Below are positions 654-29,048 of a DNA stretch of 41,024 nucleotides, piece by piece (position 1 is the first letter of the stretch; every line of letters starts with the position of its first letter). The stretch lies in UHGV virus genome UHGV-0070243; one strand, given 5' to 3'. The notes under the pieces are model-generated. The model searched no databases. It was not told where the DNA came from and saw nothing but the letters and a program-made list of their open reading frames with translations. This DNA is from a virus. The position numbers and the translations under genes are program-made.

Positions 654-1172
654 GTGATGAAATTTAAAAAATGTCTTCTGCCCGTGGCAATGTTAGCGTC
701 ATTCACTCTGGCAGGATGCCAGTCAAATGCTGATGATCATGCCGCCGATGTTTATCAAACCGATCAACTGAATACCAAACAAGAAACTAAAACCGTTAAT
801 ATTATTTCCATTCTTCCCGCAAAAGTTGCCGTAGACAACGCCCAAAATAAACGGAACGCACAAGCCTTCGGCGCGCTTATTGGCGCTGTCGCTGGCGGTG
901 TTATCGGCCACAACGTCGGGTCTGGCAGCAATTCCGGAACGACGGCAGGTGCAGTTGGCGGCGGAGCTGTAGGCGCGGCAGCGGGTTCTATGGTGAATGA
1001 TAAAACCTTAGTGGAAGGTGTTTCTTTAACATATAAGGAAGGCACCAAAGTGTATACCTCCACCCAGGTGGGTAAAGAGTGCCAGTTTACGACAGGTTTA
1101 GCCGTTGTTATTACCACGACGTATAACGAAACGCGTATTCAGCCAAATACCAAATGTCCTGAAAAGAGCTAA
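654..1172 (+). CDS. yfgH: glycine-zipper lipoprotein, YfgH-like (172 aa); probable host gene
   Basis: signal peptide with lipobox LAGC; Gly-zipper run GALIGAVAGGVIGHNVGSG typical of SlyB/Pcp-type lipoproteins; RBS GGAATAG before ATG. Confidence 0.65.
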   Translation: MMKFKKCLLPVAMLASFTLAGCQSNADDHAADVYQTDQLNTKQETKTVNIISILPAKVAVDNAQNKRNAQAFGALIGAVAGGVIGHNVGSGSNSGTTAGAVGGGAVGAAAGSMVNDKTLVEGVSLTYKEGTKVYTSTQVGKECQFTTGLAVVITTTYNETRIQPNTKCPEKS

Positions 1173-1187
1173 TAATCAGGAGGAGTC

Positions 1188-1727
1188 ATGAAGAAAGTTT
1201 TTCTTTGCGCCATCTTAGCCTCCTTAAGCTATCCGGCTATCGCCTCATCATTGCAGGATCAACTCTCGGCTGTCGCAGAAGCGGAACAGCAAGGTAAAAA
1301 TGAAGAGCAAAGGCAGCATGACGAATGGGTCGCGGAGCGCAACAGGGAAATCCAGCAAGAGAAGCAACGTCGCGCAAACGCCCAGGCCGCGGCTAATAAA
1401 AGAGCGGCAACGGCAGCAGCGAATAAGAAAGCTCGTCAGGATAAACTGGACGCCGAAGCCACTGCGGACAAAAAACGCGATCAAAGTTATGAAGATGAGC
1501 TACGTAGCTTAGAGATTCAGAAACAAAAACTGGCGCTGGCGAAAGAAGAAGCCCGCGTTAAGCGCGAAAACGAATTTATCGATCAGGAACTGAAGCACAA
1601 AGCTGCGCAAACCGATGTGGTGCAATCTGAAGCTGACGCAAACAGAAATATGACTGAAGGCGGTCGCGATCTGATGAAAAGCGTGGGTAAAGCAGAAGAG
1701 AATAAATCAGATAGCTGGTTTAACTAA
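1188..1727 (+). CDS. yfgI: secreted coiled-coil protein, YfgI-like (179 aa); probable host gene
   Basis: signal peptide MKKVFLCAILASLSYPAIA; charged coiled-coil body; RBS AGGAGG 6 nt before ATG; followed by terminator. Confidence 0.6.
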   Translation: MKKVFLCAILASLSYPAIASSLQDQLSAVAEAEQQGKNEEQRQHDEWVAERNREIQQEKQRRANAQAAANKRAATAAANKKARQDKLDAEATADKKRDQSYEDELRSLEIQKQKLALAKEEARVKRENEFIDQELKHKAAQTDVVQSEADANRNMTEGGRDLMKSVGKAEENKSDSWFN

Positions 1728-1765
1728 ACGATGTTAGTAACTTCAAACCTATAATTCTTTAGGAT

Positions 1766-1798
1766 AAAAAACCCTCTGTAGTAACAGAGGGTTTTGTT
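1766..1798. terminator. bidirectional rho-independent terminator between host genes and prophage lysis operon
   Basis: A6 - CCCTCTG - tagtaa - CAGAGGG - TTTTGTT; hairpin flanked by A-run on one side and T-run on the other, so it works on both strands. Confidence 0.65.
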
Positions 1799-1921
1799 CA
1801 TTCATAGTGCAGGGTCAAATCATTCCCACTCAATTATTTACGATAACCATAACCAATTGAATGATAACATTTTTCCAAATCTCAATTTTTCCCGTACCGT
1901 TTTATATACCGTCACCGGAAA

Positions 1922-2419
1922 TCAGTGCCACGATTTTTGCTTCTTCAGTGAATCGTATTGCTGCTCGCAGAATTCCCCTGCGATACGATACTTTTCAGCC
2001 TCAGCTGCTGTTGCGTTGTAAACTCGGTTGCTTTCTTCAAGCATGTCGGCGAGCACACCGATGACCTTGCTGGCTGGCGTGCCAGGGGGGAAAGATCCGG
2101 TATAGTGTTCGGCGAGCCGCCTGGTTTTGTCAAGCTCGGCGCGCATGCTGTCAGCAGCGGAATTAGCATACTCAGCATCAGCACGCGCCGCATCGATACG
2201 GGATTGTGCTTCACGTTCAATTTGTGTTTTCTCCTGCTCACGCTGTGACCTTAACTTATCATCAGCCTGTTTCTGATCTTCCTTCGCCTGCGCATACCCG
2301 GCATCGTACTGACGGATGCCGTGCACATTCCAGGCAACAACTCCTGATATGACCAGAACAGCAAGCATCGCCACGATAAGTAACTGTTTACGGTATGCTT
2401 TTACAAATGCCCAGATCAT
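1922..2419 (-). CDS. Rz-like i-spanin (165 aa)
   Basis: N-terminal TM helix then charged coiled-coil periplasmic domain; start ATG overlaps endolysin stop (ATGA); last gene of lysis cassette. Confidence 0.75.
1945..2193 (-). CDS. Rz1-like o-spanin lipoprotein embedded in Rz in another frame
   Basis: internal ATG at 2191-2193 gives [17 protein letters not shown]... with lipobox LTAC and Pro-rich mature part; classic Rz/Rz1 embedded architecture. Confidence 0.5.
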   Translation of the reverse strand: MRRVLMLSMLIPLLTACAPSLTKPGGSPNTIPDLSPLARQPARSSVCSPTCLKKATEFTTQQQLRLKSIVSQGNSASSNTIH

Positions 2420-3045
2420 ACCGCCAGTACCTTACTTGCTGTGATGTACCGCGCACGCCGGTCGTCGATACCGTTTCTGCCACCATTGATAATCAGAGTT
2501 ACACGTGCAATATCGCCGGTATACTTCATGCATCCTTTGCTGGCGAAGAACCACGCCGCGCTACGAGCCGCATATTCGTCCTGCGCCAGCAGTTCAGGGC
2601 TCTCCAGCAGGTCAACCTTCAGACCGTTTCCGCAATCACGATAGTTATTCAAACCGGTAATCTGGATAAGTCCGCGCCCTCGGTAATTCCAGCCATCACC
2701 AGGGGCATTGTTCCCCATGCGTTTGCTGTATACCAGATTTGCGATCGCGCGCTGGCGCTCAAGTGGCAATGGTGGTTCACCAGCACGGCGCCCCAGTGCA
2801 TTAGCCTGCCCCTGAGTGAGACGCCCAGCCCGAACGAAGTTAGCCAGTCCGCTGACACTGTAGTTGAAATTCTCCTGCAACCTGGTGAAGCCCCCAGACT
2901 CATGCCCGACTTGAGCAATAAACATTGCCTGATCTTCTGCTTTGCTGATACCAAACTCTTTCATCGCAGAAGTTATATGCGAGAACCAGCGTGCGGCCAG
3001 TGCCTCGCTGATACCAGCAGCTCGCTGGAATTGTTTAATCTCCAT
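2416..3045 (-). CDS. endolysin, glycoside hydrolase family 19 (chitinase-like lysozyme), about 209 aa
   Basis: internal start MEIKQF... with GAGG RBS; motifs [10 protein letters not shown] and [11 protein letters not shown] recalled as GH19 phage endolysin signatures; ORF-track ORF 2416..3210 trimmed to ATG at 3045. Confidence 0.8.
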
Positions 3046-3343
3046 GTTTAGACCTCGATACTTTAAAAATTTGAACGACGTTACCGCGCGTTTTAATAAC
3101 CGCAGCCAGCATGACAGCGTTGATAATGACCTCAGATAAATCCACAGCCATTGGCGTACGTAACCAGATTGCATAGGCGACTCGAACAGGAATACTGGCC
3201 GCAGCAACAATCAGGAAATAAGCAAGCCATCCTCCCCACCTTCGATGTTGAGAGCCGTTACGCCGGAATGTGACAACGCGAATTGCTATGCCAGTGCAAA
3301 TAACTGCATTGGTGATAAGCAAAAAAAACTCATGCGTTACCAT
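3035..3343 (-). CDS. holin/antiholin-like small membrane protein (102 aa)
   Basis: three hydrophobic segments; overlaps endolysin start by 11 nt; sits between holin candidate and endolysin. Confidence 0.5.
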
Positions 3344-3734
3344 CGTCTTTTCTCCCCGGAATTAACTCGCGTGGATTATCGGAACGGTGATAGAGCCATA
3401 TACCAATACGCACAGCGACAATTGCTGACACGAATGCGCCTGCAGAGAAAACAATCCCTTTTTCAAAAGAGTCCTGCGTGATGGTAGGGATCAGGCTGGC
3501 TATGCCGATAAGAATTGATGCTGCTGGTTTGTAAAAGAGAAGGCCACAAAGAAAGCTGAGCATCGAAAGGAGCACCCGGCGACGGATGGGGTACTCTACT
3601 GCAGAGGTAACAAAAATTACCGCCCCAGCCAAAGCCCCTAAAGCAACCTCCGGAGGGACACCTGCAATAACCGCAGCAAGAGAACCAAAACTAAGCAACT
3701 GATTTAATTGCTCACTTGTTACTTGAGCAGACAT
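3330..3734 (-). CDS. holin-like membrane protein (134 aa)
   Basis: multiple TM helices, charged C-terminus; first gene of lysis cassette; overlaps next gene by 14 nt. Confidence 0.55.
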   Translation of the reverse strand: MSAQVTSEQLNQLLSFGSLAAVIAGVPPEVALGALAGAVIFVTSAVEYPIRRRVLLSMLSFLCGLLFYKPAASILIGIASLIPTITQDSFEKGIVFSAGAFVSAIVAVRIGIWLYHRSDNPRELIPGRKDDGNA

Positions 3735-4015
3735 ACTTTCTCCTGTTTACTATCTATAAGCCAGTCAATTATTGATGACTAACCCCGCATAGTAAACCAT
3801 ATATGAATCATTATTGTTCCATATCATATATCTCAATAAAAGTACTAATGATTTTACAGAACGAGCCAGCAGAGTGAGGGCAGTTGTACAGGAACCATAG
3901 ACTTAATTTTGTATTTAATAATGCTATGGTGTAATAAACCTGAACATGTATTTAAAATACGTACTGATTCATGATAGAATTCAAGGATAACTTTTCACAA
4001 ACTCCGTTTTTGATA

Positions 4016-4042
4016 CCCGCAAAATATTGCGGGCTTTTTTTT
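4016..4042. terminator. hairpin CCCGCAA-aata-TTGCGGG followed by T8 on the plus strand; abuts the tail spike stop codon
   Basis: 7-bp stem, 4-nt loop; T-run only on plus strand and A-run before it, so strand of action is ambiguous. Confidence 0.4.
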
Positions 4043-7000
4043 AACGTTCTTCCAGAGACTGAATCCGCTCTTTTATCTTATCCATTTCTCTGCGCTGCCA
4101 TGCTGCCTCGATATAGAATAAGAGATCAGGTCTGACCCCCCATCTAGATCCTGCTGGCGTTATTTCAACGCGCTCAATGATGTCTTCCATTACCATCACT
4201 GGATTATCATCCTCATCAACAATGATGCTCCCGTCATTATCAGTCAGTGGCATTTCCCTTTGGCCAGTAATGACGTCATCATATACTGCGGGATAATCGT
4301 CATAGCAAAGAAACGCATAGCGGCATGTTGTGCTTTCTTCTTCCATGAGTCCGTGAGAAATAAGAACATCACGAAGTTGCTGCGCGATTACACCATGATG
4401 TATCCTCGCCCCTTCTTCCCCCTTTATAGCGACAGCGTTCAGCCATTTATAAGCGATATACCTGACGTCACCCCAGGCATCCAGCAATGCTTCGTCAGGA
4501 GAGACCGGCTCTGTCTTTAATGTTCCGTCACTGGTAACCACAGGATTGGAGCCAAGATAAACTGTCGAGAACCTGTTTCCCGGACCACCAAGAGCATTTA
4601 CATTATCAAGATAAGGTTTAACATCTCCGTTCTCAAAAAGATGTTCGAGTGCGTTATATACCGCGCGACGTGGAGTACTGCTTCCGGAACCATGCAACGT
4701 TATCATTGCACCATCTGCTGAAGACGTTGTTTCACCGCCGCTAACGATTAATCTCTGAGCGGTAACATCATCAGACGGTACTTTCTTCGCAATAATGGCG
4801 TAATTACCCTCAAGTTTGACTTCCGCGCGAACTTGTCCTGATGTACCTGCATGGACAGTCAGTGACTGGACGGCAACATCATCTGTGAAATCAACGGGTA
4901 CAGGAACCGTCCTCACGCCTGACGTCGACATAAAAGTAGGAAGCGTTCTGTTAGGAGTGGCTCCGTAGACAAAATCCCTTGAAACAAATTCTTCCTGTTT
5001 AATTTTCACCCTGAAACAATACAAATCAGCCGGGTGACCATCGTGAACATAAGGATATTTTCTGTTGTTATCCCCTATGCTCCATGGGTTTAGAAAGTCT
5101 TCCCCACCGAAAATGTAGTACAGCCAGTTGTCTTTGATACAAACTGAACCAACACCAACCGCAGAGTTAACTATTCCGCCCTGATAAATCTGATCAGTAA
5201 CATTAACCCACTCTACATTATCCAGACTCCACTCATTGACGTTAACTCTGGTCATAAATGTTCTTGGATAATTTCCTGCATAACGGTTATCAGGTTCTCC
5301 TCCTTCCCACTCACCAAATGCGCGCTCACTGCCAAAAATAATCAGCTCATCGCCAACTTTGGCAAAAGGAAGGTTTGAGTGATGAACATTATTTGGGAAG
5401 CGAAGAGAATTCCATGATGTACCTAAATCAGAGCTTCTGTGCAATGAACTACCGGGTTGAGTACTTAATGTCCCCCTGGTCGTCAGATACAGAATGCCAT
5501 CATAATATTTTACACATGGCTCAGATGCATTCGCCTCATATTCTGCAGGTATGCGTCTGCGAACAAAGCTACCAGGAGAACCGAAAGCATCAGAGAAATA
5601 GAGTATCCCAAGCTCGCGTGGACCAATATCACCATTATGGTAGCCAACAGCAAAACTGTTATCGCTAATCGTCGCAAAACTGTGAATCTCAGTAACAGGA
5701 GTGCTTCCGTCAACAAAAGAAGGAATAGTTCCAAGACTGGTTTTTCTCCATGGTGACGAGTGAAATGATGTACCAAAACTCCAGTATCTACCCTCGTTAT
5801 TCTGATCCACATCCTGGGTATTTTGCGTCGTAACTGTAAAAGTATTTTTATCAATAACAGTAGTCACCGTCATATTCCCGGTAACACCTGTAACACCAGA
5901 GTTTGAGAAGTTGACAAAATCACCAGCAAATAATCCGTGATCAGTAATGCGAATATAAGCGACTTGCTGATTTGCTGCTTTCGTTATACCACCATAAACG
6001 CGAAGGCTGCGACTCATTGGGCGATCCCACAACTCTGCAACCTGCAGTTTATTTCCGCTCACGGTCCGCGTCTCAATTACAGCAAAAAGGCGATTTCTGA
6101 CAACCCCCATACTCATGCAGTGATAGTTAACTGTGGGATAGTTTTCATGTAAATCTGTAAGCCATTCCGGCGTTGTCCAGGTCTTCCCGTCATCTCCTGA
6201 GCGAACCCATGCAACATGGAGGTTATTTACACCATGGCGGTCTCCAGCCATAAAAGGCGCATAGATGACATTGTCATATACAAACGTTTTATCCTGCGTC
6301 CAGGCGTTGTACCACGGTGTATCTGTAATTTTAAATAACTCTCCCTGGATAAAATCTTCAGAAGCATAAAAAAGAGGCTGACCCGGTATTCTCTCAAATA
6401 AAAAACGAGCATTTTTAAATCGGCTGACATCCGGAAGAGTTGATACTTTAAAAGTAAGCCCTAATCCGTCAATTTTATAACCTGGAGATGAGGCTTCAAG
6501 GCACGCGCTTATTGCAGTGGAATCGTCATTTATACCATCACCAACAGCTCCAAAATCTTTGGGGCTAATAGCATCACGCATTTTATCCTGGAACGTTCGG
6601 TACACAGCCCCAGAACCATACTGAATAAACCAACCAAAACCACCAACAACCCCGGCGATTGCAGCATCGACATAATTACGCATTGAGCGATTATTTACAG
6701 CGTCCTGTTCAAGTGATGGATCTGCAAGGTTAGAAATTTTGTTTTGCTTTGCATCGTAATATTTTGCAAGCAAAGATGGTTTCATCAATGCACGTCTGAA
6801 CCACCCAAAACATTGCTGGATCAGCATCGTCAGGTAGTCAAAAGCATCTTCATGCACTTCGGGGAAAAATTTTCCCTGATTGCGAAGGTCTGTCTCCTGC
6901 ACTACATCAAGCACACGATCTATCGTAATTCGCCATCCAGTAGCAAGCGGCGACGGAAGAACCACAGAACCGCCACTATAAGTTCCCGCCCCAGTTACCG

Positions 7001-7160
7001 TATAACCGGTATCCAGAACCAATTCTGTTACGTTCCCGTTCAGGTCAGACACCTGAACAACCAGGTCTGATTTTCTGAAAATTCGAAAAGTATACGGAAA
7101 CGATGTCGTAACGCCGTTACCTGTGTATTCGTTGTGGTCAACTTCGGTTGAGACCGTCAT
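4041..7160 (-). CDS. tail fibre/tailspike (1039 aa): T7 gp17-like N-terminal virion-binding domain, Asp-box beta-propeller, C-terminal intramolecular chaperone (S74-like) domain; candidate endosialidase-type depolymerase
   Basis: N-terminus EYTGNGVTTSFPYTF...VVQV resembles the T7 tail-fibre N-domain (memory); two Asp-boxes SGDDGKTW and SSDLGTSW; C-terminal region LDNVNALGGPGNRFSTVYLGS...RWGVRPDLLFYIEAAWQRRE resembles the auto-cleaving chaperone of endosialidases and long tail fibres. Confidence 0.8.
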   Translation of the reverse strand: MTVSTEVDHNEYTGNGVTTSFPYTFRIFRKSDLVVQVSDLNGNVTELVLDTGYTVTGAGTYSGGSVVLPSPLATGWRITIDRVLDVVQETDLRNQGKFFPEVHEDAFDYLTMLIQQCFGWFRRALMKPSLLAKYYDAKQNKISNLADPSLEQDAVNNRSMRNYVDAAIAGVVGGFGWFIQYGSGAVYRTFQDKMRDAISPKDFGAVGDGINDDSTAISACLEASSPGYKIDGLGLTFKVSTLPDVSRFKNARFLFERIPGQPLFYASEDFIQGELFKITDTPWYNAWTQDKTFVYDNVIYAPFMAGDRHGVNNLHVAWVRSGDDGKTWTTPEWLTDLHENYPTVNYHCMSMGVVRNRLFAVIETRTVSGNKLQVAELWDRPMSRSLRVYGGITKAANQQVAYIRITDHGLFAGDFVNFSNSGVTGVTGNMTVTTVIDKNTFTVTTQNTQDVDQNNEGRYWSFGTSFHSSPWRKTSLGTIPSFVDGSTPVTEIHSFATISDNSFAVGYHNGDIGPRELGILYFSDAFGSPGSFVRRRIPAEYEANASEPCVKYYDGILYLTTRGTLSTQPGSSLHRSSDLGTSWNSLRFPNNVHHSNLPFAKVGDELIIFGSERAFGEWEGGEPDNRYAGNYPRTFMTRVNVNEWSLDNVEWVNVTDQIYQGGIVNSAVGVGSVCIKDNWLYYIFGGEDFLNPWSIGDNNRKYPYVHDGHPADLYCFRVKIKQEEFVSRDFVYGATPNRTLPTFMSTSGVRTVPVPVDFTDDVAVQSLTVHAGTSGQVRAEVKLEGNYAIIAKKVPSDDVTAQRLIVSGGETTSSADGAMITLHGSGSSTPRRAVYNALEHLFENGDVKPYLDNVNALGGPGNRFSTVYLGSNPVVTSDGTLKTEPVSPDEALLDAWGDVRYIAYKWLNAVAIKGEEGARIHHGVIAQQLRDVLISHGLMEEESTTCRYAFLCYDDYPAVYDDVITGQREMPLTDNDGSIIVDEDDNPVMVMEDIIERVEITPAGSRWGVRPDLLFYIEAAWQRREMDKIKERIQSLEER

Positions 7161-7660: not shown

Positions 7661-7926
7661 ATTTACATCGCACTCCTCTTGTGCCATAGTAATCGGGCAC
7701 TGGCAAAATCCAGTGCCGGGATTGGCGTCCCGGGTTACTACAGAGGCACATATGCCGCATAAGCGGTTTTTTTATGTGTAAAGCGCACCTATTCTATGGT
7801 GGGCTGTGTGGGGGCACCGAAAGGTGCGCCGGGTCCTTTGTAGCCGGTTACGCCAACCCTGCACAGTTCACCACCAACCGATTGGCGTCGGTAGTGGTGA
7901 TTAACCTAACTACAAAGGTGATCACT

Positions 7927-8613
7927 ATGACTGCTAACGTAACCCCATCTGTTTTTCATTTTGAATCAGAAGCAACCATTCGAGCCATTGTTATTGATGG
8001 AAATCCTTGGTTTGTTGCCAAAGACGTTATTAAAGCTCTTCAACTGACAAACCCCACTATGTCAATAAAATCTCTTGATGATGATGAAAGGGCTAAATTT
8101 AACTTAGGCCGTCAAGGCGAAACCAATATTATCAACGAGTCAGGCCTCTACACACTGATCCTCCGCTGCCGCGACGCAGTGACACCAGGCACTATCCCCT
8201 ACCGCTTTCGTAAATGGGTTACAGGTGAGGTTCTTCCTCAGATCCGCCGCACCGGAAGTTACATTAAAAACTCGCTCCCGCAGGAAGAACGCATAAAGAT
8301 GGTTGCCGACCAGGTAGCCAACGCCACAGCATCAGCAGTGATGCAGGCAATGAAGATAGAGAACAAAACCTACAGTGCCCCGCTGAAGCCCGGCTACCGC
8401 AGTCTGATTCATTCGCCGTCGGGTGTTCTCGGCCTGACGGAGCACTCACTGCTGATGAATCTGCTGAACCAGTTACAGGAAGACGGGCATGACGTATCGG
8501 GCGCGGCGGCGGAGCTGACCACCATGTTCTGCTACATCGTCGGTGTGAGCAAATGCCTGCGTGATATCCAGACGCACGCGGAGTACATCAACGACAAGGC
8601 TGGGTTCTTCTGA
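7927..8613 (+). CDS. antirepressor, Bro-N domain + ANT/KilA-C C-terminal domain (228 aa)
   Basis: Bro-N signature FHFESEATIRAIVIDGNPWFVAKDVIKAL...ESGLYTLILRCRDA...RFRKWVTGEVLPQIRRTGSY; RBS AAGGTGA; ORF 7774..8613 trimmed to ATG 7927. Confidence 0.8.
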   Translation: MTANVTPSVFHFESEATIRAIVIDGNPWFVAKDVIKALQLTNPTMSIKSLDDDERAKFNLGRQGETNIINESGLYTLILRCRDAVTPGTIPYRFRKWVTGEVLPQIRRTGSYIKNSLPQEERIKMVADQVANATASAVMQAMKIENKTYSAPLKPGYRSLIHSPSGVLGLTEHSLLMNLLNQLQEDGHDVSGAAAELTTMFCYIVGVSKCLRDIQTHAEYINDKAGFF

Positions 8614-8720: not shown

Positions 8721-8930
8721 ATGGGATTTTGGTTCGCTCGTACAAAAACGAGGGATAATGCACCCAGCCCTCAGGCAAAAAATGCAGAAGTTCCGGCGTC
8801 AGCGCAGGTTAACAAGCGTGGTGGAGTATATATCTCATCACAGCAAATTTCTGAGCTTCCTGAGGTTAAGGAGATGCGTCGTCTCGCTGCTGCAATTGTT
8901 AAACAGGATCTTGCCACTGTAAGGAAATAG
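8721..8930 (+). CDS. hypothetical small soluble protein (69 aa), first gene of two-gene cargo operon
   Basis: strong SD GAGGAGGAG 4 nt before ATG; stop TAG overlaps GTG start of next gene by 1 nt; preferred over alternative-frame ORF 8698..8922. Confidence 0.5.
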   Translation: MGFWFARTKTRDNAPSPQAKNAEVPASAQVNKRGGVYISSQQISELPEVKEMRRLAAAIVKQDLATVRK

Positions 8931-9796
8931 TGTTGTTAGCTCTTCTAATTATCCCCATTCTGGTTAGTGGTTATATTATGATAACCGCTAACCAGTATCA
9001 TTATTTCCGTTTATACCGACATGAAGGCCAGCTTCTTTATATGAAAGTAGCTGCATTAGGTACATATTGCCTTGTTGCATCAGTAATAATTGCAGCCGCT
9101 ATAAAATATAAATGGCCTGATTTTCACCTAGTTCACGATATGGTGGAAACTTTTAATGTAACATCAAAACCAGAAACAGATAGAATTTACATGTGGCTGC
9201 TTCTTCTCTCAGCCACATCCATTTGCTTCTCTTTGTGTTATGTGTCTGTTGTGTGGGTGAAAGATTTTCTTCTTGGTTGTTTTTATAAACGTGATATTTA
9301 CGAGCAAAAAACAGAGGCAATGAAGGCCAGAGTACTGCGAAAAACTTACTCGCAAGGTTCTTTAGACTTACTATTGCTTGATGCTATTGAATCGGATCCT
9401 AAACGACCAATGTTGATTACTTTATCATCAAACAAAGTGTATGTTGGAATAATAAATGGTTCTGGTGAACCAACGGAAAATCAGGGTCCGCATCAGCACA
9501 TATCTTTTGTTCCTTTAATGTCAGGATACAGGAACAAAGAAAACTTATCTGTCACATTCACTAATGCTTATCCAGGAGAAATACAGGTCAAGCGGACTGC
9601 AGCAATAAGAGGAATTAGCAGAAAGAAAGTGCCAGGACTTGAGATCATGGTGTCTATTGACGAAATAAGTTATATATCATGGTTTGATTTTGAAGTATAT
9701 AAAGCAACAAATAACAAAGTAGAATCCAGGGGGCACGTTATTCGTGTTACCAAAAATGGAAGAAATATATATCAAAGAAATAGCAAAAAAGAATAG
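8930..9796 (+). CDS. hypothetical membrane protein (288 aa): three or four N-terminal TM helices plus about 160-aa soluble C-terminal domain
   Basis: GTG start with RBS AAGGAAA; visibly AT-rich codon usage unlike flanking phage genes; followed by terminator. Confidence 0.6.
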   Translation: MLLALLIIPILVSGYIMITANQYHYFRLYRHEGQLLYMKVAALGTYCLVASVIIAAAIKYKWPDFHLVHDMVETFNVTSKPETDRIYMWLLLLSATSICFSLCYVSVVWVKDFLLGCFYKRDIYEQKTEAMKARVLRKTYSQGSLDLLLLDAIESDPKRPMLITLSSNKVYVGIINGSGEPTENQGPHQHISFVPLMSGYRNKENLSVTFTNAYPGEIQVKRTAAIRGISRKKVPGLEIMVSIDEISYISWFDFEVYKATNNKVESRGHVIRVTKNGRNIYQRNSKKE

Positions 9797-10098: not shown

Positions 10099-10356
10099 TG
10101 CACATCCCTGTGCCTCCGTTCTGTCAGAAGAACCCTGCCTTGTCATTGATGTACTCTGCGTGAGTCTGGATATCACGCAGGCATTTGCTCACACCAACGA
10201 TGTAGCAGAACATGGTGGTCAGCTCCGCCGCCGCGCCCGATACGTCATGCCCGTCGTCCTGCAACTGATTCAGCAGATTCATCAGCAATGAGTTCTCCGT
10301 CAGGCCGAGAACACCAGACGGCGAGTGAATCAGGCTGCGGTAGCCGGGCTTCAGCG
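10099..10356 (-). repeat. right arm of about 258-bp inverted repeat (partner of 8380..8638)
   Basis: reverse complement of 8380..8638 matches with a handful of substitutions. Confidence 0.8.
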
Positions 10357-11068
10357 GATAACCATAACATTTTGTCTGTGTTTTAATTGCCTCACGAAGC
10401 GCATCTAACATCTTGACTGCCACTTCATCATTCTCTGATGCAGATCCAGCAGGGAGATACTCCCCTTCAAGCGGAACCCGAGCAACAAGAGACAACGCTT
10501 CGGCGAATTGATCTTCATCAATTTCTTTGTACGAACAGCCAAAATGAGATTTCAGTGACGACCACATGGTGATCATCGCCTTAGCCTGTTTTTCTTTTGG
10601 CAGAGACTGACCGCGACTCATGACGAGTTGTTTAATGGCTTCCTGCTGTTCAGTGGTTATTTTACCCGGCAACGCCTTTTTAGCTTTGCGTGGGTTAACC
10701 ACATGGCCTTTAGTCCAGTACTCGTAGAGCACATCGTCACACTCTTCCTGATACTGGATTACCTTGTCGCGGATTTCAGGACGGACTTTGTTAGGGCTGA
10801 TGGTTTGCAACCAGCCAGCAAGTTTGCGAAGTGCCAAACAAATAATCTCACGGCGCTGTTCATCCCCAGGAAGCTGCATTGTGATTTTCACAATGCAGGT
10901 TTTAAACCGCTGCTTCATTTTCGTAAACTGTGAAGCCCAATCCATACCCATTCCCTCAACGATAGGCTTCATTGGTGTGTACGGTTCGCCGTTGTGATTG
11001 ACAACATAAAGTTCTACGCCGTGGAATGGCACGTTGATAGTAGATACCGCTGTTGCTATACTCGTCAT
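10124..11068 (-). CDS. ant: antirepressor Ant-like (314 aa): Ant N-terminal domain + shared ANT/KilA-C C-terminal domain
   Basis: N-terminus VPFHGVELYVVNHNGEPYTPMKPIVEGMGMDW and KVRPEIRDKVIQYQEECDDVLYEYW recalled as P22 Ant-like; downstream of arc-like gene as in P22 immI. Confidence 0.7.
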   Translation of the reverse strand: MTSIATAVSTINVPFHGVELYVVNHNGEPYTPMKPIVEGMGMDWASQFTKMKQRFKTCIVKITMQLPGDEQRREIICLALRKLAGWLQTISPNKVRPEIRDKVIQYQEECDDVLYEYWTKGHVVNPRKAKKALPGKITTEQQEAIKQLVMSRGQSLPKEKQAKAMITMWSSLKSHFGCSYKEIDEDQFAEALSLVARVPLEGEYLPAGSASENDEVAVKMLDALREAIKTQTKCYGYPLKPGYRSLIHSPSGVLGLTENSLLMNLLNQLQDDGHDVSGAAAELTTMFCYIVGVSKCLRDIQTHAEYINDKAGFF

Positions 11069-11308: not shown

Positions 11309-11428
11309 TTCATATCTCCTTAGCCCCACCGTGGGGCAAAACAATTGTCACACCGTGCGTCATTGATGTCAAGCACACGGTGAGGCATACTTCAATCATT
11401 GCAAGTAACTCAATATTTGGTGAAGAAC

Positions 11429-11860
11429 ATGAGCAGAGAAGATCCACAACTAAGGATCAGACTTCCCGTTGAAGTAAAAGAAAAAATAGAAATTTCTGCA
11501 AAAGCCAATAAGCGATCAATGAACGCTGAAATAGTACAACGTCTTGACACCAGCTTTCTGAAAGATATTCATGAAGATGACGTAATTTCTGCTTATGAAG
11601 CAAAAATTATTGCAAACAATGCACGGCATGAAATATCAAATATTATTTTCAAAAGAACCTTTAATGAAATTAATAAGAAAATAACACTTGGACATACAAG
11701 TTTTTATATAAACCTTAATGACCTTGAACTGGAATCACTTGCAGATAATGATTACCAGATCATCTTTGAAAAAACATTTAATAAGCTCAATGAACTAGGT
11801 TACATCATCTGTGAAAACTCATGGGATGCAGATGGTTTTGGAATTGAAATACCTGAATAG
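11429..11860 (+). CDS. mnt: Mnt-like ribbon-helix-helix repressor with about 60-aa C-terminal extension (143 aa)
   Basis: MSREDPQLRIRLPVEVKEKIEISAKANKRSMNAEIVQRL resembles P22 Mnt N-terminus (DDPHFNFRMPMEV...ANGRSMNSELLQIV); divergent from arc; AT-rich. Confidence 0.65.
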   Translation: MSREDPQLRIRLPVEVKEKIEISAKANKRSMNAEIVQRLDTSFLKDIHEDDVISAYEAKIIANNARHEISNIIFKRTFNEINKKITLGHTSFYINLNDLELESLADNDYQIIFEKTFNKLNELGYIICENSWDADGFGIEIPE

Positions 11861-11950
11861 GAAGAACAAAAGGCGTGTACATATTACACGTCTTTAATAC
11901 AATTGAAAAACGCCACATTACTGATGTATGTTACAACAAGGAGCGATATT

Positions 11951-12514
11951 TTGAAAACCATATCTATATTAAAGGTTGCATTAGGCGTCGCTATTATTTT
12001 GACTCTCTCAATATTGTTTTATTTTTACCACAAAAAAACAGCTATTGCTCTTGATGGTCACGCGGCAAACTCATTTTTCTCAGAGTACATAGTGCCGCTA
12101 TCAGGAAGCGGTATAACAAATAAATATACTGACTATGACATCAAATATGGAATTGATGATGGGGAGACTATTGTATTACATGTAATCATTAAAAACCTAA
12201 TGACAGTAAATAAAAATACAGACTTCAACGATAAAAATACAATACATCACAACAACAGCAAAACATTAATTTCTTATAGTAGCAACATCTATACGGATAA
12301 ATACCTAAAATACATCTCAGAAGATACAATAAAAGCAACCAGCGAAAAGTTAAAAAACATATATTGTGCATCCGGCAGTTTTCACAAATTATCGCCGCAA
12401 GAGCGTTTATTCTACGAAGCAAGAAAACAACGTAAGTCAATAATATTACATTATTATGCTGATTCAGGGGAGTCACTCATATTTAATATTGGGGTTTCCC
12501 CTGAATCATGCTAA
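11951..12514 (+). CDS. hypothetical membrane-anchored protein (about 188 aa) in the position P22 sieA occupies; candidate superinfection-exclusion/abortive-infection protein
   Basis: TTG start with perfect SD AAGGAG 7 nt upstream (alternative ATG 11924 lacks an RBS); one TM helix ISILKVALGVAIILTLSILFYFY; very AT-rich; sits between mnt and the core-protein operon. Confidence 0.5.
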   Translation: MKTISILKVALGVAIILTLSILFYFYHKKTAIALDGHAANSFFSEYIVPLSGSGITNKYTDYDIKYGIDDGETIVLHVIIKNLMTVNKNTDFNDKNTIHHNNSKTLISYSSNIYTDKYLKYISEDTIKATSEKLKNIYCASGSFHKLSPQERLFYEARKQRKSIILHYYADSGESLIFNIGVSPESC

Positions 12515-27900: not shown

Positions 27901-27977
27901 GTGGCATTAGCTCAGTTGGACAGAGCAACCGCCTTCTAAGCGGTTGGTCGCAGGTTCGAATACTGCATGCCACGCCA
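27901..27977 (+). tRNA. tRNA-Arg (anticodon UCU), 77 nt, with a G:A mismatch in the T-stem
   Basis: acceptor GTGGCAT/ATGCCAC, discriminator G, CCA encoded; D-arm GCTC/GAGC; anticodon stem ACCGC/GCGGT with loop CTTCTAA; T-arm GCAGG-TTCGAAT-ACTGC; overall very similar to E. coli argU (memory). Confidence 0.8.
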
Positions 27978-28062: not shown

Positions 28063-28140
28063 ACAGCAGGACGCCATTGCGATGACTTCATGCTGTAAAC
28101 CAGTACAGCCACGGAAGGCATAACTCATTGCTTCCAGTTC

Positions 28141-28164
28141 GCCCGGTTCGTCCGGGCATTTTTT
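28141..28164 (+). terminator. rho-independent terminator GCCCGG-ttcgt-CCGGGC + T6
   Basis: 6-bp GC stem followed by ATTTTTT. Confidence 0.65.
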
Positions 28165-28180
28165 GCCTGATGACCACAAA

Positions 28181-28195
28181 TTACCTTAAAGGTAT
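28181..28195. promoter_or_regulatory. operator-like site TTACCttaaaGGTAt overlapping a TATAAT hexamer (28193-28198)
   Basis: one mismatch in right arm; directly upstream of the moron start codon. Confidence 0.5.
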
Positions 28196-28199
28196 AATC

Positions 28200-29048
28200 A
28201 TGAAAAACTTTAAGGTAATTAGTATGTTCGAATCGTTCAAAGAGCTGTTTTCATCTACTGCCAATACTGCCGTGCATCGAGCTAAAAACCCTGTGCTTGG
28301 TGCTTTTGTTATGTCCTGGTGCGCCTTCAACTGGAAATCACTTCTTTATCTATTTTTTAGCAAATCAAATATAATAGATAAAATTTCATACATCTCAGAT
28401 AACAGCACATGGAAAACTGTTATGTTTTATCCATGCTTATCTGTAATTACTATCTGCTGCCTATTACCATGGGTAAACAATATCATTAACGTATGGCAAG
28501 CAAAGCCTCTTGATAATAATGACTCAATCGAAAACCACCGGAAGGCAAGAAAAATACAACGTGAAACACGGCTACAGAGATTGCTGGCTAAAAAAGACAT
28601 TACTTACGAAAAAGTAAAAACAGGCGCTGAAAAAAACATTCAAGACATGAAAGAGGAAATAATTCTTTCAAAAGACAGAATGGGACAACTCACATCTGAA
28701 TTGAAAGAGAGGGAGACAGAACTGCGCGCAGCACAAGCTCGTATTTTAGAATTATCTAAGGTTATTGATGAAACAACATCTAAACTAGAAAATCTAGAAA
28801 AAACTCACAAAAATTTAAAAAACGAATATGAGTCCTATAAGAAAAACATTCCTTTGGCAACAAATAATACAATTGCTAATGGGCTTGTAGGTCTAAAATC
28901 ATTACAAGACTTTAATGAGTCCGTAAAGAAACTTGGCGTTACTGGAATTAACAATCCAGAAATCAGTACATTATTGAATAATCCTCTAGTAAATATAAAT
29001 GGTGATTTAAATTCCACCTATCAAAGAAAATCAAAAACACAAAAGTAA
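28200..29048 (+). CDS. hypothetical membrane-anchored coiled-coil protein (282 aa); moron on the strand opposite the structural genes
   Basis: two N-terminal hydrophobic helices then long heptad-like charged region (ELKERETELRAAQARILELSKVIDETTSKLENLEKTHKNLKNEYESYKK); AT-rich; alternative start ATG 28224 with RBS AAGGTAA. Confidence 0.6.
   Translation: MKNFKVISMFESFKELFSSTANTAVHRAKNPVLGAFVMSWCAFNWKSLLYLFFSKSNIIDKISYISDNSTWKTVMFYPCLSVITICCLLPWVNNIINVWQAKPLDNNDSIENHRKARKIQRETRLQRLLAKKDITYEKVKTGAEKNIQDMKEEIILSKDRMGQLTSELKERETELRAAQARILELSKVIDETTSKLENLEKTHKNLKNEYESYKKNIPLATNNTIANGLVGLKSLQDFNESVKKLGVTGINNPEISTLLNNPLVNINGDLNSTYQRKSKTQK

Follow-up and report, generated by a model that had tools for sequence, protein, structure and literature searches.

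The stretch of DNA analysed here (41,024 nt; hereafter the window) carries a tailspike gene at 4041..7160 that raises two questions: which capsule would the spike attack, and from which phages do its parts come? The original prediction had described a chimera of a T7-fibre N-terminus, a sialidase-type propeller and a self-cleaving chaperone domain, and had proposed a capsule depolymerase, possibly an endosialidase specific for polysialic acid. As judged from sequence, the protein is very probably an endo-alpha-2,8-sialidase and the only tailspike of a temperate podovirus of epsilon15-like (Uetakevirus) type, which sits as a prophage in an E. coli chromosome. Such a spike is already known: RefSeq contains an annotated copy of the very same chimera, a description exists for phage ZX5, and work on CUS-3 and K1F has characterised its enzyme module.

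The tailspike gene and its prophage

The interval 4041..7160 corresponds exactly to one complete ORF on the minus strand, as do all gene segments located below, with an ATG start, a ribosome-binding site (GGAG) 7 nt upstream of it and a product of 1039 aa (115.6 kDa), an endosialidase precursor. PHROG 1171, ‘tail spike protein’, covers the protein end to end, and the DNA of the gene is 99.6-99.8% identical to annotated genes of phage ZX5 and of E. coli genomes. A search of the whole protein against NCBIfam gave no match. Lying 7 nt past the stop codon, a GC-rich hairpin (CCCGCAATATTTTGCGGG, 4016..4033, no strand assigned) may be a terminator or an RNA-stabilising hairpin; its T-run is on the plus-strand side only, with none on the coding-strand side.

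The window as a whole represents a prophage of Uetakevirus type within the chromosome of E. coli, and its left end is host chromosome. Its structural genes share 97-98% identity with their counterparts in phages of this type, and as a genome it is 97-98% identical to PAS61, phiv142-3 and ZX5. The genes for virion structure, lysis and regulation are all present and collinear with TL-2011b, phiv142-3 and PAS61. The integrase is absent from the window and lies beyond its right end.

Near-identical copies of the spike occur elsewhere. The endosialidase of an E. coli APEC O1 prophage (WP_000218907.1) is one residue apart (L150F), and ORF7 of phage vB_EcoP_ZX5 (QTH80017.1, MW722083) is two residues apart (L150F, S368R), each also of 1039 aa. 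Both share the three-part architecture and the genome slot, which runs from a small divergent gene to the holin genes, and there is essentially no difference between them and the window's spike. At the DNA level, the window allele is unlike all five other compared alleles at gene nt 738, 2847 and 2913. ZX5 is classified as a Uetakevirus and is a viable free-living phage; the 2022 ZX5 paper reads its spike as a T7-like tail-fibre N-terminus, an endosialidase and an intramolecular chaperone. Full-length copies of the spike were found in 72 of 5426 complete E. coli genomes, and these include O1:K1:H7-labelled strains and cerebrospinal-fluid isolates.

Catalytic head, stalk and chaperone

The Pfam search placed the central region squarely within the endosialidases, with no assignment to a non-sialidase glycosidase family: four endosialidase domains and Peptidase_S74 (PF13884) each scored above their gathering cut-offs. 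The endosialidase N-terminal extension, or cap, occupies aa 205-271 (6348..6548; PF12218, 109.6 bits, E 5.9e-32). It is followed by the catalytic six-bladed beta-propeller at aa 272-721 (4998..6347; PF12217, E 1.4e-233), which matches model positions 1-367 of 367 at 774.9 bits against a cut-off of 24 and into which a beta-barrel domain is inserted at aa 383-465 (5766..6014; PF12195, 155.7 bits, E 3.2e-46). The stalk, a triple beta-helix or tail-spike domain, covers aa 722-876 (4533..4997; PF12219, 260.4 bits, E 8.4e-78) and contains R863. The cap, barrel and stalk matches are also full length. We take the enzyme to belong to family GH58.

Structures of endoNF, the K1F gp17 endosialidase (1v0e, 3gvl, 3gvj), match aa 205-876 of the spike with E = 0. 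The catalytic residues listed for endoNF (H350, R549, E581, R596 and R647; PMC12632334) align, within the propeller, with H309, R515, E547, R562 and R613, and the second-shell residues Q289, K551 and N665 are kept. The two Asp-boxes that had suggested a sialidase fold are indeed present inside the propeller, SGDDGKTW at aa 321-328 (6177-6200) and SSDLGTSW at aa 576-583 (5412-5435), and both align with Asp-boxes of endoNF. The pattern S-x-D-x-G-x-x-[WFY] has no further match in the spike, and two or more strict Asp-boxes (S-x-D-x-G-x-[TS]-W) arose in 0 of 5000 residue shuffles.

Compared with EndoNF (PDB 1v0e, 3gvl, 3gw6), the domain order is the same from the cap onward, with 64.7% identity over aa 234-1029, two Asp-boxes in each protein, and all catalytic and autocleavage residues kept. 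EndoNF differs in lacking a 7-aa insertion, FVDGSTP (aa 482-488 of the window's spike), which CUS-3 shares. The endoNF stalk also has a polysialic-acid-binding site that we take to consist of R837, S848 and Q853; the last of these presumably corresponds to Met819 in the window's spike, a residue that CUS-3 has as well.

A characterised close relative of the catalytic module is siaK1 (ABQ88383.1), the tailspike gene of CUS-3, which is a prophage of E. coli K1 and a P22-like Lederbergvirus. A block of 2393 nt, gene nt 699-3091 (4070..6462), is 99.46% identical to siaK1 in DNA, and the catalytic module is common to both spikes. At the protein level, identity is 100% for propeller and barrel and 98.7% for the stalk; over aa 234-1025 there are four differences from CUS-3 EndoN (A266V, G826R, T866I and A891T), none of them in the propeller. 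The last 14 codons differ between the two genes. Since the propeller is identical to that of CUS-3 EndoN, for which the GenBank record cites direct-assay evidence of endo-alpha-sialidase activity, we infer that the window's spike would cleave alpha-2,8-polysialic acid internally. Taken together, the four Pfam domains, the endoNF match, the retained catalytic residues and the 99.5% DNA identity to siaK1 bear out the proposal of a capsule depolymerase and probable K1 endosialidase.

The expectation that roughly the last 150 aa form an endosialidase-type intramolecular chaperone also held, the domain comprising 163 aa (aa 877-1039, 4044..4532, 18.7 kDa). Peptidase_S74 matches aa 877-937 (41.4 bits against a cut-off of 22) directly after the triple beta-helix, and the endoNF chaperone structure 3gw6 matches aa 757-1038 (E 1.3e-93). 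Cleavage in endoNF relies on a Ser-Lys dyad, S911/K916, with an assisting R897 (PMC8326128); these residues align with S877, K882 and R863, so the dyad is kept. The predicted cleavage site lies between T876 and S877 and would yield products with computed masses of 96.9 and 18.7 kDa.

The virion anchor and the junction

The N-terminal 150 aa had been likened to the virion-attachment domain of the T7 tail fibre. This likeness survives at the level of fold, as a remote one, and the family assignment does not: the domain belongs, by sequence, to the epsilon15/Uetakevirus tailspike anchors, to which T7 gp17 is only distantly related. The virion-attachment domain spans aa 1-165 (6666..7160); its identity is 71.5% with the tail fibre protein of epsilon15, presumably gp20, and 68.5% with the spike of phiV10. 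The nearest solved structure is the Carin-1 tailspike Dpo31 (PDB 8ck1, 28lx), which matches aa 1-211 (E 1.2e-35; Foldseek E 6e-11, 48% identity). Dpo31 has a beta-sandwich D1 domain at the virion base (residues 8-87) with a coiled-coil next, and it likewise sheds a C-terminal domain, of 18 kDa; it is a marine podovirus protein that differs from the window's spike in catalytic domain and substrate. The anchor has a comparable layout, with a beta-sandwich at about aa 9-82 and helices following. An AF2 model of the N-terminus had a mean pLDDT of 66, and its sole confident stretch was aa 11-80 (86-92).

T7 gp17 itself (PF03906; PDB 7boz, 7ey9, 9jz0) has the same podovirus tail-attachment role, and the modelled N-terminal domain appears to have the same fold: Foldseek comparisons with T7 gp17 N-terminal chains gave E-values of 1.8e-4 to 1.1e-2 (7ey9_a, 1.8e-4; 7boz_a, 4.1e-4), with an rmsd of 2.1 A over 83 columns for 9jz0_b. 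Sequence similarity is marginal, however, and the window phage is not T7-like. Phage_T7_tail (PF03906) reached 15.9 bits, under the Pfam gathering cut-off of 25.2, and is weak in all 28 members of the N-terminal family (best E 2.2e-6). BLASTP against T7 gp17 aligned just 22 aa (E 0.012), and hhalign of this family against a profile built from two sequences, T7 and K1F, was collinear over 122 columns with a probability of 4.4%, both profiles being shallow. In view of the hhalign result, no membership of the T7 fibre family is claimed at the level of sequence. A T7-like N-terminus proper is found in the K1F endosialidase and not in the window's spike: K1F, whose genome is of the T7-like Autographiviridae, has a gp17 N-terminus of its own that shows no convincing alignment to the window's.

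Between anchor and catalytic head lies a linker or neck, aa 166-204 (6549..6665), most of which is common to other Uetakevirus spikes and across which the confidence of the AF2 model is low. It was delimited by comparison with the ‘eliminase’ spike of EC.W1-9, which is 98% identical over aa 1-204 and whose DNA homology stops at gene nt 596. The spikes of epsilon15 and phiV10 share the phage type and gene position, with 68-72% identity over the N-terminal 165 aa; from annotations and general background, we take their receptor-destroying parts to be beta-helix folds that target O-antigen, where the window's spike has an endosialidase. The other flank of the junction is CUS-3-like. No DNA homology to the window gene is detectable over the first ~174 aa of the CUS-3 spike, a domain that we presume, from the Lederbergvirus classification, to be of the P22 gp9 type; the window's spike instead has an epsilon15-type anchor of ~200 aa.

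The junction segment proper, as bounded by blastn and three-way alignment, comprises 102 nt (gene nt 597-698, aa ~200-233; 6463..6564) and at the DNA level has no match in either CUS-3 or the Uetakevirus parent type. It encodes GA-x-GDG-x-x-DD, a motif that opens both endosialidase caps and beta-helix depolymerases, and it includes a weak PF12708 match (aa 201-221). A simple two-parent recombinant is a misfit, as this segment matches neither parent type; a third origin of the segment would hint at more than one exchange event. These patterns may reflect that an endosialidase module of 2.4 kb was recently passed on ready-made between prophages of two genera, P22-like CUS-3 and an epsilon15-like Uetakevirus, with GA-x-GDG-x-x-DD perhaps a general splice point at which podovirus spikes swap receptor-destroying modules, although we hold this reading only tentatively. 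It is similarly possible, without being the favoured expectation, that the crossover fell at this motif. CUS-3-type and Uetakevirus-type prophages can share one K1 chromosome: some K1 strains hold both the window-type and the CUS-3 spike. The two copies of strain EC69, one Uetakevirus-type and one CUS-3-type, differ at 11 of 2393 positions, and its CUS-3-type copy is identical to CUS-3. Ongoing gene conversion between co-resident copies was rejected, given that the differences within EC69 are at the between-genome level.

The surroundings of the module differ as well. The capsule O-acetyltransferase gene neuO adjoins the spike downstream in CUS-3, while the window prophage has no neuO. Only 306 nt separate the spike gene from the next gene, and a search of the window for a neuO-like phase-variable O-acetyltransferase by the spike found no AAGACTC heptad repeats.

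Proposed mechanism, alternatives and host range

By homology to endoNF and CUS-3, from which we infer cleavage, trimerisation, docking and substrate, three 115.6-kDa precursors would join through the C-terminal chaperone domain (aa 877-1039). Once the trimer had folded, the Ser877-Lys882 dyad, helped by Arg863, would cut before Ser877, freeing the 18.7-kDa chaperone and leaving a stable mature subunit of 96.9 kDa. The trimer would dock to the virion tail hub by its N-terminal part, the beta-sandwich together with the helical neck (up to about aa 204). A mushroom-shaped head, formed by the cap, the six-bladed propeller and the beta-barrel, would bind and cleave the K1 capsule at a site made up of H309, R515, E547, R562 and R613, and this cleavage would let the phage tunnel to the outer membrane.

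Alternatives to this reading concern the activity, the substrate and the expression of the spike. The spike could bind polysialic acid while being catalytically weak or dead, as a lectin-like adhesin. Engineered single substitutions of endoNF exist (R647A, chain 3gvj), and one change could in principle matter greatly; four substitutions do separate the spike from CUS-3 over aa 234-1025. None of these falls in the propeller, however, the five catalytic or binding residues are retained together with Q289, K551 and N665, and ZX5, whose spike is nearly the same, is a viable phage. We consider this alternative very improbable. Hardly more probable is a preference for another sialic-acid polymer, either K92 (alternating alpha-2,8/2,9) or heavily O-acetylated K1. 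In its favour, the endosialidase of phi92 (4hiz), a phage that we take to infect K92 hosts, falls in the same family (E 1.6e-271), FVDGSTP is an insertion relative to endoNF, and neuO adjoins the spike in CUS-3-type prophages. Yet CUS-3, itself a phage of K1 strains, shares the insertion and the entire propeller without any difference, K1-labelled strains are among the genomes that bear the gene, and the window prophage carries neither neuO nor another acetyltransferase.

The gene might instead belong to a defective prophage, a silent remnant whose product never enters virions, which would touch on expression and not on the identity of the protein. Many E. coli prophages are cryptic, the integrase is outside the window and the window's left end is host chromosome. 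Against this, the ORF is intact and one or two residues from the copies of APEC O1 and the free-living ZX5, and the collinear structural, lysis and regulatory gene set is full; we regard a silent remnant as unlikely.

If the spike degrades the K1 capsule, the host range of the prophage would be limited to K1-encapsulated E. coli, a group that takes in avian pathogenic strains and strains of neonatal meningitis and urinary-tract disease. As a class, endosialidases serve as reagents and are candidates for therapy directed at capsules. Biologically the window itself brings nothing new; it is of modest value as a further clean example of tailspike modularity, in which the same catalytic head is carried on a different virion anchor.

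Identity and architecture of the tailspike

The gene at window 4041-7160 (hereafter the spike gene) encodes an endosialidase tailspike that is already known from annotations and the literature, and the original prediction was a correct reading of the sequence. Along its full length, its DNA shares 99.6% identity with the spike gene in vB_EcoP_ZX5 (ZX5), a temperate Uetakevirus whose spike protein differs at two residues, and likewise with two unannotated phage records. E. coli genes that carry the annotation [quoted passage not shown] are, among the matches listed, 99.6-99.8% identical. Full-length matches were found in 72 of 5426 complete E. coli genomes, including APEC O1 (one residue different, L150F), O1:K1:H7 strains and cerebrospinal-fluid isolates. 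The ZX5 paper (PMC9782041) divides that phage's ORF into a "phage T7 like tail" domain at the N-terminus, an endosialidase in the centre and an intramolecular chaperone at the C-terminus, which is the original reading nearly word for word.

The interval is exactly one minus-strand ORF of 1039 aa, with an ATG start and a GGAG ribosome-binding site 7 nt 5' of it. Both predicted Asp-boxes are real and lie on the minus strand, SGDDGKTW at aa 321-328 (window 6177-6200) and SSDLGTSW at aa 576-583 (window 5412-5435). The pattern S-x-D-x-G-x-x-[WFY] has no further matches in the protein, and two strict boxes (S-x-D-x-G-x-[TS]-W) appeared in 0 of 5000 shuffles of it. Five Pfam domains exceeded curated cut-offs: End_N_terminal (aa 205-271), End_beta_propel (aa 272-721, E 1.4e-233, full model length) with End_beta_barrel inside it (aa 383-465), End_tail_spike (aa 722-876) and Peptidase_S74 (aa 877-937). 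The best solved-structure matches were those of endoNF, the endosialidase tailspike gp17 of phage K1F (1v0e, 3gvl, 3gvj and 3gvk; E = 0, aa 205-876), together with 4hiz, the endosialidase of phi92; 3gw6, the structure of the endoNF chaperone domain, matched aa 757-1038 (E 1.3e-93). PHROG 1171 ("tail spike protein") covers the protein end to end.

To map residues, the spike was aligned with full-length K1F gp17 and with EndoN, the endosialidase spike protein of CUS-3, a P22-like (Lederbergvirus) prophage of E. coli K1. Met819 of the spike (window 4704-4706) stands where endoNF has Q853, presumably a residue of its stalk polysialic-acid-binding site; CUS-3 also has Met there. R837 and S848, presumably also part of that endoNF site, are conserved in the spike as R803 and S814. 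The essential endoNF residues H350, R549, E581, R596 and R647 (PMC12632334) correspond to H309, R515, E547, R562 and R613, all conserved, and an inactive, lectin-like spike appears unlikely. Also conserved are S877 and K882, the counterparts of the S911/K916 dyad for autocleavage, and R863, the counterpart of R897, which assists it (PMC8326128). With the predicted cut before S877, the 115.6-kDa precursor would yield a mature chain of 96.9 kDa and a chaperone fragment of 18.7 kDa. Domains, structures and residues alike support the proposed sialidase-type propeller and a putative self-cleaving chaperone.

The CUS-3 spike gene, siaK1, is 99.46% identical to gene nt 699-3091 (counted from the start codon), and its GenBank record carries direct-assay evidence of endo-alpha-sialidase activity. 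The two proteins are 100% identical in propeller and barrel, with only four substitutions over aa 234-1025; it is improbable that the spike's substrate would be a different sialic-acid polymer.

The N-terminal anchor

The N-terminal domain belongs to the epsilon15/Uetakevirus anchor family. Residues 1-165 share 71.5% identity with the N-terminal part of the tail fibre protein (presumably gp20) of Salmonella phage epsilon15 and 68.5% with its phiV10 counterpart; weaker relatives, among the matches listed, come from podoviruses of Pseudomonas, Pelagibacter, Vibrio, Xanthomonas and Bordetella. None of the best 50 matches was to a T7-like phage. Over aa 1-211 the closest solved structure (E 1.2e-35) was Dpo31, the tailspike of the marine podovirus Carin-1, in which a beta-sandwich at the virion base leads into a coiled-coil. 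An AlphaFold model built with 28 relatives has the same layout, with strands at aa 9-82 (pLDDT 86-92 over aa 11-80) followed by long low-confidence helices.

The resemblance to the T7 fibre N-terminus seen in the original prediction holds as a remote likeness of fold. Foldseek recovered T7 gp17 N-terminal chains (7ey9_a, E 1.8e-4; 7boz_a, E 4.1e-4; 9jz0_b, rmsd 2.1 A over 83 columns), and Pfam Phage_T7_tail matched 28 of 28 family members weakly (best E 2.2e-6). Against these stand a Phage_T7_tail score for the spike of 15.9 bits, under the 25.2 cut-off, a BLASTP alignment with T7 gp17 of just 22 residues, and a shallow hhalign comparison of the family with the T7 type (4.4% probability). Weighing the fold and family-wide matches against these scores, we regard the relationship as real but distant; the domain would serve in the role of the T7 fibre anchor, and common ancestry is probable. 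The endosialidase in a genuinely T7-like genome, by comparison, is that of K1F.

Prophage setting and proposed mechanism

As in APEC O1, window 1 to ~1818 is collinear with E. coli chromosomal DNA on the yfgG-yfgH-yfgI side, and homology to ZX5 starts at 1818. The left end being chromosomal, the window is an integrated prophage with a boundary near 1818; judging from ZX5 gene order, its integrase would lie beyond the right end. Downstream of the spike, on the minus strand, are two holin-type genes (3330-3734 and 3035-3343), an endolysin (2416 to ~3045) and a DUF2514 spanin-like gene (1922-2419). The spike-to-lysis gap is only 306 nt (3735-4040), whereas TL-2011b has an O-acetyltransferase (gp49) between spike and holin genes and CUS-3 has neuO after its spike. 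A GC-rich hairpin (4016-4033) lies 3' of the stop codon, with a T-run on the plus-strand side only; no heptad repeats were found in the window. Upstream are divergently transcribed small genes and antirepressor genes of Bro-N (7774-8613) and P22_AR_N (10124-11068, minus strand) type, with an Arc-like repressor at 11399-11860. Low-GC stretches of this region hold plus-strand ORFs at 8930-9796 (288 aa) and 11903-12514 (203 aa), both lacking Pfam matches. Elsewhere, a phage-borne tRNA-Arg (anticodon TCT, 27901-27977) adjoins a stretch of GC 0.37 that contains a plus-strand 306-aa ORF (28128-29048), also with no Pfam match and a candidate moron or accessory gene. The structural genes share 97-98% identity with their counterparts in TL-2011b, PAS61, phiv142-3 and ZX5, and we consider it unlikely that the prophage is dead and the spike gene a silent remnant in it.

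We are highly confident in the mechanism as a whole, that of a self-cleaving, trimeric K1-capsule endosialidase spike. By homology, the C-terminal domain would drive trimerisation and stalk folding and then cut itself off by means of the Ser877-Lys882 dyad. Once mature, the trimer would dock on the podovirus tail through the N-terminal beta-sandwich, and its propeller heads would bind and cleave alpha-2,8-polysialic acid, letting the virion cross the K1 capsule.

Mosaic gene and proposed exchange of the catalytic module

The spike gene is mosaic. It is of the Uetakevirus spike type, 96.9% identical to phage EC.W1-9, from 299 nt before the start codon as far as gene nt 596; the EC.W1-9 spike then runs into an unrelated "eliminase". 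The CUS-3-type block spans gene nt 699-3091; CUS-3 also differs over the last 29 nt. The intervening 102 nt (gene nt 597-698, window 6463-6564) match neither type and would have a third origin. Aligned, all three proteins carry here, in diverged form, the motif GA-x-GDG-x-x-DD common to endosialidase caps and beta-helix depolymerases, and aa 201-221 give a weak pectate-lyase-type Pfam match. We infer that this conserved stretch may have eased module exchange.

The catalytic module was matched in 186 of the 5426 complete genomes, with at least 99% identity in 185 of them. It occupies 247 places in these genomes, and many therefore hold two copies. The K1-type cerebrospinal-fluid isolate EC69 (NZ_CM128670.1) carries two endosialidase tailspikes in prophages of different genera, a Uetakevirus-type copy (1,372,560-1,375,679) and a CUS-3-type copy (1,540,907-1,543,852) ~165 kb apart. 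Comparison of these two alleles gave 11 mismatches in 2393 positions, as many as between genomes, with no sign that gene conversion keeps the copies identical. These few differences, equal within and between genomes, suggest that the module was exchanged recently on the scale of the family, without homogenising gene conversion.
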